From the IMG/VR virus record IMGVR_UViG_3300010163_000020, positions 1,880 through 65,879 of that record: DNA of 64,000 bases; one strand, written 5' to 3'. Source of the stretch: a virus. Shown piece after piece: positions 51,463 to 52,376 of the stretch. How positions within the stretch are numbered: position 1 is the stretch's first letter; the number at the start of each line of letters is the position of its first letter. The position numbers were made by a program, and so were the translations under genes. The notes below the pieces were generated by a model that was not told the origin of the DNA, searched no databases, and saw nothing but the letters and a program-made list of their open reading frames with translations.

Positions 51463-51709
51463 TTTCGTTATGACTATCTTAGTGACTATTCTAGACTTTA
51501 TAGTTGGAATATTTAATTTTTGTAGAGGACATATTTTCTGGGGTATAATTTTCATGATAATTACTGTGTTATATTGTCTAATTATGATACCCCTAAGTTG
51601 GAGAAACTTTTTAAAAGACAGAGATTTAAAAATCAAACAAAAAGAAATTCAAGAAAGAATTGATAAAGAATGGAGGAAATATAATCATGAGAATATACCA
51701 AAATTGTAG
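51449..51709 (+). CDS. small membrane protein
   Basis: Two TM helices. Confidence 0.4.
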   Translation: MEITNFVMTILVTILDFIVGIFNFCRGHIFWGIIFMIITVLYCLIMIPLSWRNFLKDRDLKIKQKEIQERIDKEWRKYNHENIPKL

Positions 51710-52376
51710 AGAAATGATGTCAGAAGTCCACAGAGATTTACAGGAAATGGGTATAATCAAACATACCAAAACCGTTCAAGACAAAGTAGTAGATGGTAAT
51801 GAAGATTATACAACCAAAGAATTAGTTGGTTATAGCTATGCAATTTTAGACTTTAGTGATATGGACCAAATGATAACAGAAAACAGTTTATCTTTGGAAT
51901 GGTGTAAAGCTGATTTTGAGGAGAGAATTTGCCCCAGAGAAATTAATCCGGGTGAAGCTTATAAATTAAGACCTGTCTGGGATGAATTTGTACACGATGG
52001 AAAATTTAGTTATACTTATAATGAAAGAATTAGAACCCAACTAGAAAAAACTATCGACATCATCAGAAATGACCACGACACAAGACAAGGGATTGTTGAG
52101 ATATATAATTCCGAAAAAGACTCAGAAAGAAGGGGTGGTCTAGAGAGAATACCATGCTCAATGTATTATCAATTCATCTCAGACCAAAATGGAAAACTTG
52201 ACATAATTTATAACATCAGAAGTAATGATTTTGGAGAACATTACCCTTATGACATTTGGATGGCTATAAGTCTTTTAAAATATGTAGCTAAAAAAGTAGA
52301 TATGCCTATTGGAAAACTGATTTATTTTGCTGGTTCGTTACATTGCTTCAAAAAGGACCTTCCAACAACATTTTAA
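51687..52376 (+). CDS. thymidylate-synthase-family pyrimidine C5-modifying enzyme with Asp at TS Asn177 position (predicted dCMP hydroxymethylase/methylase)
   Basis: Aligns to E. coli ThyA 120-215: IRNDHDTRQ/LKNDPDSRR, PCS/PCH, GKLD..RSND/GKLS..RSCD, PYDIWMAISLL/PFNIASYALL, FAGSLHCF/TGGDTHLY. Confidence 0.85.
   Translation: MRIYQNCREMMSEVHRDLQEMGIIKHTKTVQDKVVDGNEDYTTKELVGYSYAILDFSDMDQMITENSLSLEWCKADFEERICPREINPGEAYKLRPVWDEFVHDGKFSYTYNERIRTQLEKTIDIIRNDHDTRQGIVEIYNSEKDSERRGGLERIPCSMYYQFISDQNGKLDIIYNIRSNDFGEHYPYDIWMAISLLKYVAKKVDMPIGKLIYFAGSLHCFKKDLPTTF

Follow-up and report, generated by a model that had tools for sequence, protein, structure and literature searches.

A short thymidylate synthase homolog predicted to act on deoxycytidylate, and a cryptic partner of the same predicted fold, in a conserved phage nucleotide module

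Which nucleotide does a shortened thymidylate synthase (TS) homolog of a phage act on, and what would its product mean for the phage DNA? The question is raised by open reading frame (ORF) 51687-52376 in a stretch of 64,000 nucleotides from IMG/VR virus record IMGVR_UViG_3300010163_000020 (positions 1,880 to 65,879 of that record). The whole stretch was analysed and is called the window here; coordinates count from its first letter. The original prediction interpreted the ORF as a deoxycytidine monophosphate (dCMP) hydroxymethylase or methylase in a hypermodified-cytosine pathway. Our analysis supports dCMP as the substrate and places the gene in a conserved module together with a homolog of the T4 protein gp56 and, in many lineages, a second protein predicted to share the TS fold.

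The gene reads from an ATG at 51687 to a stop codon ending at 52376. It is preceded by a GGAGG ribosome-binding site, and its N-terminus, MRIY, is conserved across the family. Its features are listed below, with equivalent positions in E. coli numbering.

51687-52376, + strand: TS homolog, 229 residues, a short ThyA-superfamily enzyme with predicted dCMP C5 modification
52011-52013, + strand: Tyr109, two residues before the catalytic Tyr
52017-52019, + strand: Tyr111, equivalent to Tyr94
52083-52085, + strand: Arg133, equivalent to Arg126
52146-52148, + strand: Arg154, at position 143
52155-52157, + strand: catalytic Cys157, in IPCS, equivalent to Cys146
52158-52160, + strand: Ser158, at position 147
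52218-52223, + strand: Arg178 and Ser179, phosphate site; R178-S179-N180-D181 forms the RSxD motif and matches RSCD
52227-52229, + strand: Asp181, equivalent to Asp169
52239-52241, + strand: His185, at position 173
52251-52253, + strand: Asp189 (GAC), in PYDIW; equivalent to Asn177 of PFNIA and to Asp179 of T4 gp42
52341-52343, + strand: His219, equivalent to His207

The match to Pfam family PF00303 (54.1 bits against a gathering cut-off of 24.3), combined with a TS alpha/beta fold, places the protein in the TS superfamily, and PHROG 160 'thymidylate synthase' is matched as well (E = 1.8e-25). When compared with PDB sequences by phmmer, residues 117-226 align with residues 110-214 of E. coli ThyA (E = 1.3e-4) and with T4 TS (E = 1.3e-5). 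The ORF, its alignment with ThyA, the catalytic Cys in PCS and the RSND motif thus all stand as originally predicted. The best PDB profile matches are the flavin-dependent 5-hydroxy-dCMP synthases 9IQC and 9IQU (E = 5e-18), whose names were taken from the fold-search descriptions. Measured against the NCBIfam TS equivalogs, the protein scores 3- to 20-fold under the cut-offs, with at best 52 bits against 174.55 (TIGR03283) and 26-35 bits against 108-576 for the others.

The substrate assignment turns on Asp189. For the comparison, 86 loci with family members were reduced to 48 viral lineages (TS identity of at least 85%), and ORFs within 10 kb were clustered and counted with hidden Markov models (HMMs). 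The residue at position 177 is Asp, never Asn, in 121 of 121 database homologs and in all 48 dereplicated lineages; it is placed alike by HMMER, MAFFT and hhalign, in alignments with ThyA, Xp12 and T4 gp42 (the latter by MAFFT, with the sequence from the T4 record). As it is invariant throughout, Asp189 can be explained neither by a sequencing error nor by misalignment, and the predicted Asn-to-Asp exchange holds. Equally invariant in the 48 lineages are Arg133, Arg154, Cys157, Arg178, Ser179, Asp181, Tyr111, His219 and Trp98 (equivalent to Trp80), while Tyr109 is invariant among the 121 database homologs. Ser at position 147 is found in 46/48 lineages, His at 173 in 47/48 and Gln at 127 in 41/48.

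Published work on N177D links this exchange to dCMP use (PMC5175136 among the sources). All natural characterised enzymes with Asp177 that we examined or read about use cytosine nucleotides, namely T4 gp42, MilA/BcmA, the 5-hydroxy-dCMP synthases of RB69, DLP3 and HY126, and the Xp12 enzyme, in agreement with the cytosine specificity originally proposed. Contigs obtained by experimental selection for modified cytosine are also enriched in TS homologs with Asp177, and a residue other than His at position 147 is the other position associated with such contigs. As judged from these residues, dCMP is a well-supported substrate. The deoxy form is likewise supported: Ala167 with Lys126 marks the ribo-specific enzymes MilA/BcmA (PMC5175136), and the invariant Ser179 and Arg133 of the window protein constitute the deoxy-type pair instead. 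That Asp-type TS homologs mark phages with modified cytosine is already established, and the general idea is not new.

The cofactor can be approached in the same way. Both folate-site residues, Trp98 (W80) and Asp181 (D169), are kept invariantly, whereas the flavin enzyme AfhB has lost both. With moderate confidence, we regard the protein as a folate-type, deoxycytidylate-specific enzyme in a distinct, uncharacterised clade of short TS homologs.

The TS homolog lies among genes that a pathway of the T4 type would use:

50081-50620, + strand: thymidylate-kinase-family deoxynucleoside monophosphate (dNMP) kinase (PF02223, E = 7.1e-8; phrog_761, E = 1.4e-22), candidate kinase for a modified dNMP
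50617-51255, + strand: all-alpha dUTPase_2/MazG-like nucleoside triphosphate (NTP) pyrophosphatase (PF08761, E = 3.9e-9; phrog_12184; phrog_173), candidate deoxycytidine triphosphatase (dCTPase)
35084-35560, + strand: dCMP-deaminase-family protein (phrog_174, E = 3.7e-35), 16 kb upstream of the module
48190-50097, + strand: replicative DNA polymerase (phrog_1252, E = 4.9e-125), directly upstream of the kinase

The NTP pyrophosphatase (NTPase) is the most informative of these. Over its last 46 residues it shares 37% identity with the end of T4 gp56, where both close with RQxxGY (pairwise E = 5e-8); this identifies it as a homolog of the T4 dCTPase/dUTPase and as a candidate both for removing deoxycytidine triphosphate (dCTP) and for supplying dCMP. 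The MazG-like candidate dCTPase of the original prediction is therefore upheld, as is the dCMP deaminase. The deaminase could make deoxyuridine monophosphate (dUMP) from dCMP, or thymidine monophosphate (dTMP) or 5-hydroxymethyl-dUMP from modified dCMP. The kinase was correctly identified but starts at 50081, not where it had been placed, and the NCBIfam thymidylate kinase models score it below their cut-offs. Similarly, the polymerase is confirmed as such, and its assignment to family B is suggested by PolB-like motifs read by eye (DFE, DVSSYYPN, KLTINSISG, SNTDG); neither the PolA and PolB models of Pfam nor phmmer against all PDB sequences gave a match. Searches with Pfam, PHROG and seed sequences found no ThyA, ThyX, dihydrofolate reductase (DHFR) or Dam elsewhere in the window, where DHFR was sought by single-seed phmmer of low sensitivity. 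An ATP-dependent ligase is also encoded. TS, PRA-PH/MazG-like, dCMP deaminase and DNA ligase domains have been reported as enriched on contigs selected for modified cytosine, and the window matches this published set in encoding TS, MazG-like, deaminase and ligase genes.

Across the 48 lineages, the partnership of TS homolog and gp56-like NTPase is nearly obligate. The NTPase lies within 10 kb in 46 of them, usually directly upstream of the TS homolog, and to keep a cytosine-type TS homolog together with a gp56 homolog follows the logic of dC replacement in T4, as far as gene content tells. The Tmk-like kinase occurs in 21/48 lineages, always together with the NTPase. The dCMP deaminase is found within 10 kb in 20 lineages, typically immediately downstream of the TS homolog, and is absent from that range in 28. 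Its position right after the TS homolog recurs in the commonest gene orders, NTPase-partner-TS and kinase-NTPase-TS. The partner, described below, occurs in 30/48 lineages and is not found within 10 kb in the other 18. Kinase and partner occur together in 8 lineages, the kinase without the partner in 13, the partner without the kinase in 22 and neither in 5 (odds ratio 0.14, Fisher p = 0.003, uncorrected for shared ancestry). The split follows the polymerase type, partner with PolA and kinase with PolB. The replicative polymerase is of family A in 22 lineages, of family B in 13 and a PolIII-alpha fusion with uracil-DNA glycosylase (UDG) in 1, and from this varied background we conclude that the module moves as a unit between unrelated replication backgrounds. 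ThyX is present within 10 kb in 2/48 lineages and also in MW202777, so that the TS-homolog family is not needed for dTMP synthesis in those phages. No second ThyA was found in any of the 48 lineages, and no DHFR either, the latter by phmmer with a single Xp12-like seed of low sensitivity. Glycosyltransferase neighbours occur in 1/48, a distant lineage.

The partner is encoded downstream of the TS homolog and retains four conserved residues:

53590-54441, + strand: second TS-fold protein (the partner), 283 residues
53827-53829, + strand: partner Tyr80, equivalent to Tyr94
53941-53943, + strand: partner Cys118, equivalent to Cys146
54013-54015, + strand: partner Arg142, equivalent to Arg166
54046-54048, + strand: partner Asp153, equivalent to Asp177

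The family has no match in Pfam, PHROG or NCBIfam, and a partner-family HMM run against the window found ORF 53590-54441 as its sole match (E = 1.4e-18). Only Tyr80, Cys118, Arg142 and Asp153 are conserved, both in the 30 lineages and in 57 sequences collected independently by exhaustive HMMER searching; the sequences follow a 'G-x-C-L ... R-x-x-x ... D' pattern, and the spacing of 11 from Arg to Asp equals that between R166 and N177 of TS. Profile-profile alignments with the TS family are weak (E = 3e-4 to 5e-3, probability 7-41%), and the Cys/Arg/Asp register was recovered in every one of them. The fold was assigned from one AlphaFold 2 (AF2) model built on a 14-sequence alignment, a word-indexed search having yielded 13-14 sequences. 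On this model, the partner has the TS fold but has diverged very far in sequence. It carries neither the folate-site residues nor the Arg126/127 pair, and we predict that, lacking a folate site, it binds or acts on a cytosine nucleotide. Its role may be to catalyse a second step on dCMP or its modified form, to carry out a folate-independent reaction, or to serve as a nucleotide-binding subunit. Probably, the partner is part of the same conserved module and binds or acts on the same or the modified cytosine nucleotide. The TS homolog had been called the only one in the window, which holds for what sequence searches detect and fails at the level of fold. Of the downstream ORFs (52376-54441), proposed as possible tailoring enzymes, one encodes the conserved partner, which supports the idea that they include pathway genes, and none was found to be a tailoring enzyme. 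The linkage of this cryptic protein to the TS clade appears to be undescribed. A role of the ~245-residue neighbour family (the partner family) as a non-homologous replacement of the kinase was also considered and rejected: the family has no Walker A motif, co-occurs with the kinase in 8 lineages, the window and Muddy among them, and has the TS fold.

The module is also present in cultured phages. The closest annotated relatives of the TS homolog, at 41% identity, are the 'thymidylate synthases' of Clostridium perfringens phages CPD4, CP3 and CPAS-15; in CPD4, the TS homolog comes after the NTPase and partner genes and before a family A polymerase. The complete module is found in genes 44-49 of Mycobacterium phage Muddy (KF024728):

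Muddy gp49: kinase
Muddy gp48: annotated 'dUTPase'; NTPase HMM, E = 4e-34
Muddy gp47: hypothetical; partner HMM, E = 4e-19
Muddy gp46: annotated 'thymidylate synthase'; family HMM, E = 1e-28, with RVPC, RSCD, His173 and Asp177
Muddy gp45: hypothetical; deaminase HMM, E = 4e-42
Muddy gp44: Pol I

With gp47 as the query, tblastn detected the partner in 85 cultured actinophage genomes (68 Gordonia, 9 Mycobacterium, 1 Mycobacteroides, the rest Streptomyces, Microbacterium and Curtobacterium). In every case its gene lies directly beside the TS and dUTPase genes and bears the label 'hypothetical'.

Taken together, we think it probable that a T4-style pre-replicative module replaces ordinary dC by a C5-modified cytosine in the phage DNA, and that the partner belongs to this module. 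From the observed fold, residues, homology and co-occurrence we infer the substrate, the cofactor, the order of the pathway and the DNA modification as follows. The gp56-like NTPase would hydrolyse dCTP, and deoxyuridine triphosphate (dUTP) as well, to the monophosphate, thereby removing dCTP and supplying dCMP. Cys157 of the TS homolog would then attack C6 of dCMP, with Asp189 reading the N3/N4 face of cytosine and the deoxyribose phosphate held by Arg178, Ser179 and Arg133'. A one-carbon unit from methylene-tetrahydrofolate may be transferred to C5, for which the folate-site residues Trp98 and Asp181 are kept. The Tmk-like kinase and a host nucleoside diphosphate kinase would raise the product to the triphosphate, and the phage polymerase would incorporate it, so that a C5-modified form would replace cytosine in virion DNA. 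Through the dCMP deaminase, some of the pool may flow back towards thymidylate.

What the product would be is less clear from the active site. The canonical TS signature is absent: Asp189 stands for Asn177, scores fall under the equivalog cut-offs, and the C-terminal tail, which in TS closes the site together with Leu143 and Trp83 so that hydride can be transferred (PMC6400193), is missing, as the chain stops 10 residues past the His207 equivalent (57 in E. coli; 10-20 across lineages), with Arg154 replacing Leu143 and Phe101 replacing Trp83. The flavin-dependent 5-hydroxy-dCMP synthases are marked by D169N and by Glu at 143 (PMC13326640), neither of which is present, since Asp181 and Arg154 are invariant. 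The MilA signature fails on Ser179 and Arg133. The T4-type hydroxymethylase signature consists of Asp or Glu three residues before the Cys (Asp145) and Ser or Thr two residues before the catalytic Tyr (Ser94), a pair that activates the substrate water; the D145N exchange in the T4 enzyme abolishes formation of 5-hydroxymethyl-dCMP (PMC6400193). The TS clade fits none of the four characterised active-site classes, and its signature appears to be undescribed. If the product is a C5-modified dCMP, we would by our own estimate give 5-hydroxymethyl-dCMP somewhat less than an even chance, and 5-methyl-dCMP and any other product each a smaller and equal one. There are hints of hydroxymethylation: a relative in MW202777 with the same Arg/His/Asp signature bears the depositor label 'pyrimidine hmase', and both the short C-terminus and the lack of a detected DHFR agree with this. 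The original prediction thus fares well on the dCMP substrate, the T4-like companion set and the logic of the pathway. Its label 'hydroxymethylase/methylase' goes too far, given Arg154, Tyr109, the missing tail and the lack of a detected DHFR, and 'hypermodified' is not borne out, as searches with Pfam, PHROG and seeds (T4 beta-GT and GT1) found no glycosyl-, carbamoyl- or other tailoring transferase in the window.

Several observations weigh against the dC-replacement module. The window protein has the equivalent of Asp179 of T4 gp42 and fails at Asp145 and Ser94, being Arg154 in 48/48 and Tyr109 in 121/121; it also departs from the Xp12-type methylase, with 229 residues and no tail against 289 residues with a tail. 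The product class can thus not be assigned from sequence, and neither usual product is positively indicated. Where T4 Glu60 and E. coli Glu58 sit, MAFFT places a non-conserved Ser, as far as a sequence alignment can tell, and the invariant Glu45 and near-invariant Glu79 lie near this position in the sequence. Among the companions, the kinase is thymidylate-kinase-like and not gp1-like, the NTPase family is annotated as dUTPase in relatives, and kinase and deaminase are each present in under half of the lineages. The searched literature holds no report of DNA modification in the Muddy, Gordonia or C. perfringens carriers. Finally, the window has 2 GATC sites where ~153 are expected (Markov, 64 kb), and this near-absence shows continued restriction pressure, which a protective modification might have relieved. 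In the closest relatives (L008, L009 and L010), observed over expected counts are 0/52, 6/27 and 1/43, while L003-L007 and Muddy, which also carry the module, have GATC in normal numbers; the rarity of CGCG and GCGC agrees with dinucleotide depletion. As the avoidance is limited to the window's own lineage, and as the main text of the published restriction paper gives no GATC-enzyme results for 5-methylcytosine (5mC) or 5-hydroxymethylcytosine (5hmC) DNA, it does not discriminate between the explanations.

Three other explanations of the locus have to be weighed. The packaged DNA might be canonical and the module an alternative thymidylate supply, in which dCTP is converted to dCMP, 5-methyl-dCMP and, by the deaminase, dTMP, which the Tmk-like kinase turns into thymidine diphosphate. 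Published phage deaminases linked to Asp-type TS homologs indeed prefer 5mC and 5hmC nucleotides, and dTMP formation from 5-methyl-dCMP has been proposed for them; the deaminase sits beside the TS homolog in 20/48 lineages, the kinase is of the thymidylate-kinase family, no ThyA, ThyX or DHFR of its own was found in the AT-rich window (67.5% A+T), and the extreme GATC avoidance suggests restriction-sensitive DNA. Nevertheless, the deaminase is not near the gene in 28/48 lineages and is 16 kb away here, and ThyX coexists with the family in some phages, where a simple dTMP route does not apply. Methylase chemistry normally needs the tail and yields dihydrofolate, but neither a tail nor a DHFR was found. 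As in pool-replacement pathways, it is a gp56-like NTPase that almost always accompanies the TS homolog, and the second TS-fold protein finds no explanation in this route, which we consider improbable. An ordinary TS that converts dUMP, fed by a plain dUTPase, would agree with the GenBank labels 'thymidylate synthase' and 'dUTPase' of the relatives, with the logic of dUTPase, TS and thymidylate kinase as a thymidine triphosphate pathway, and with this being the sole sequence-detectable TS of the genome. It is very hard to reconcile with Asp at 177 in all 121 and 48 sequences, with the changes of His147 to Ser, Leu143 to Arg and Arg127 to Gln, with the lost C-terminal tail, with scores so far under the NCBIfam cut-offs, and with the coexistence of ThyX in some phages; we give it next to no weight.

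Within the dC-replacement reading itself, both TS-fold proteins may jointly or sequentially make a cytosine derivative other than 5mC, 5hmC or 5-hydroxycytosine (5hoC), a sub-case that we hold to be possible but unlikely. For example, addition of the partner Cys to C6 might activate 5-hydroxymethyl-dCMP or dCMP for a folate-independent substitution. Arg143, Ser147 and His173, together with Tyr two residues before the catalytic Tyr, match no characterised class; the partner keeps the residues for cytosine binding and C6 addition (equivalents of Tyr94, Cys146, Arg166 and Asp177) and no folate-site residues; and the linkage extends to 30/48 lineages and to the 85 actinophage genomes, where the partner abuts the TS and NTPase genes. 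In the 18 lineages with no partner within 10 kb, the TS homolog works without it, though; the partner might instead serve as a subunit that regulates or binds nucleotides, and its fold comes from the single AF2 model and its 14-sequence alignment. Taken to its end, this idea would make the NTPase, the TS homolog with Arg143, His173 and Asp177, and its paralog an undescribed, widespread pathway to a derivative outside 5mC, 5hmC and 5hoC, with the paralog performing folate-independent Cys-C6 chemistry, which we put forward tentatively. Replacement of dC by a C5-modified cytosine through a T4-style module remains the reading that we prefer.

The window holds a nearly complete phage genome of ~64 kb with 32.5% GC. 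Endolysin, head and tail genes occupy 1-25 kb, replication and nucleotide metabolism 29-57 kb, and terminase and portal 58-63 kb. We judge the host to be a Firmicute by the endolysin (GH25, CW_7 and LysM) and by the capsid, which has relatives in Clostridioides, Bacillus and Listeria phages. The tail module contains a tube protein and a tape measure, and no sheath-sized ORF was seen in it, a gene set that fits a siphovirus; the nearest capsids are those of phages that we take to be myoviruses. Megablast of the 8 kb around the TS homolog against 50,697 phage records gave no match, which makes this a phage without a close cultured relative. Large tail-associated proteins at 6028-8217 and 21702-25139 carry DUF285 and five InlB B-repeat (Flg_new_2) domains, surface-binding modules named for Listeria and Mycoplasma proteins and weakly consistent with a Firmicute host. 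Among the early genes, 36708-38174 encodes a 488-residue protein with SPFH/Band 7 and flotillin domains, and the distant lineage L005 likewise has a Band_7 protein close to its TS homolog.

Further ORFs lie in and around the module. Between the NTPase and the TS homolog are a 65-residue ORF at 51265-51462 that matches the sporulation protein Cse60 family (PF10957, E = 2e-6) and an 86-residue hydrophobic, membrane-like ORF at 51449-51709. The ORF at 53030-53560, located between the genes of TS homolog and partner, encodes 176 residues and gave no family match; its N-terminus is rich in Cys, His and Trp (CVDCQYY...CHHPK...GCEEW), and its C-terminus resembles a coiled coil. In lineage L005/L023 (JGI 3300023210, 114.8 kb), the one with glycosyltransferase neighbours, the locus 3431-12147 of L005 contains a GT1 glycosyltransferase, an HD hydrolase, LicD, and sulfotransferase-like, cytidylyltransferase, AsnB-like amidotransferase and N6/N4 methyltransferase-like genes, with ThyX 3 kb downstream; it is a candidate cluster for hypermodification around a member of this TS clade. 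The UDG fusion mentioned above lies at 9225-12431 of L006 (PHP, DNA_pol3_alpha and UDG domains), right after the TS homolog and deaminase.

Among the carriers of the module are a phage applied therapeutically in humans and phages under consideration for the control of C. perfringens. If the idea of an undescribed pathway to a derivative outside 5mC, 5hmC and 5hoC is true, dozens of cultured phages annotated with an ordinary TS would carry non-canonical DNA, including the therapeutic phage Muddy, about 70 Gordonia phages and the CPD4 group. Modified DNA in these carriers would affect their susceptibility to restriction, CRISPR and type IV defences, host-range prediction, sequencing and phage engineering, and an enzyme class would be added to the toolkit for modified nucleotides. 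The product of the clade is not predictable by current rules, and its linked second TS-fold protein is recognised by no sequence library.

Compared with the T4 system of gp42, gp56 and gp1, the window protein shares with gp42 the TS fold, the catalytic Cys, RSND, the Asp at the cytosine-specifying position, the short C-terminus and the retained folate-site Trp and Asp. As in T4, a gp56-homologous NTP pyrophosphatase and a dNMP kinase are partners beside a phage polymerase, so that both the kinase and the phage-encoded polymerase of a T4-like dC-replacement pathway are represented, with a kinase family that differs from gp1. Unlike T4, the window has Arg154 and Tyr109 for Asp145 and Ser94, no clear equivalent of Glu60 in the alignment, a Tmk-like kinase, no glucosyltransferase and an extra TS-fold paralog.

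HY126 AfhB, RB69 gp48 and DLP3 gp80 (9IQC, 9IQU) have the same short architecture of ~230 residues, Asp177 and dCMP as the substrate, which for the window protein is predicted. They differ in D169N and L143E, both absent here; AfhB has E-Y-P-C and RSQN at the corresponding motifs and has lost the Trp80 that the window protein keeps, and the window is without their arabinose or glycosyltransferase cluster. The dCMP methylase of Xp12, whose genome contains 5mC, and the MetaGPA Asp-type TS homologs with 5mC-selective deaminases share Asp177, a residue other than His at 147 and the association with a dCMP-deaminase homolog. When assayed in E. coli, the Xp12 enzyme yielded 5mC, and so did 5 out of the 7 metagenomic TS homologs of the Asp type that were tried. 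The Xp12 enzyme, however, has 289 residues with a TS tail and scores 106 bits on TS models, against 35-52 for the window protein, and its gene lies beside DHFR and deaminase genes, whereas the window deaminase is 16 kb off and no DHFR was found. Of the CMP hydroxymethylases MilA and BcmA, which serve the biosynthesis of nucleoside antibiotics, MilA differs in having Ala176 and Lys133, the mark of ribo preference, where the window protein has Ser179 and Arg133, and in having Asp at 143; its context is an antibiotic cluster, while the window gene stands among phage replication genes.

The closest counterparts are the modules of the Muddy, GTE2-like and CPD4 types. They comprise the same families, in the order kinase, NTPase, partner, Asp-type TS homolog, deaminase and polymerase, and display the same Arg/His/Asp signature. 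In contrast to the window, they come from cultured phages of Actinobacteria or Clostridium, at 25-41% identity and with family A polymerases, and are annotated as if the enzyme were an ordinary TS.

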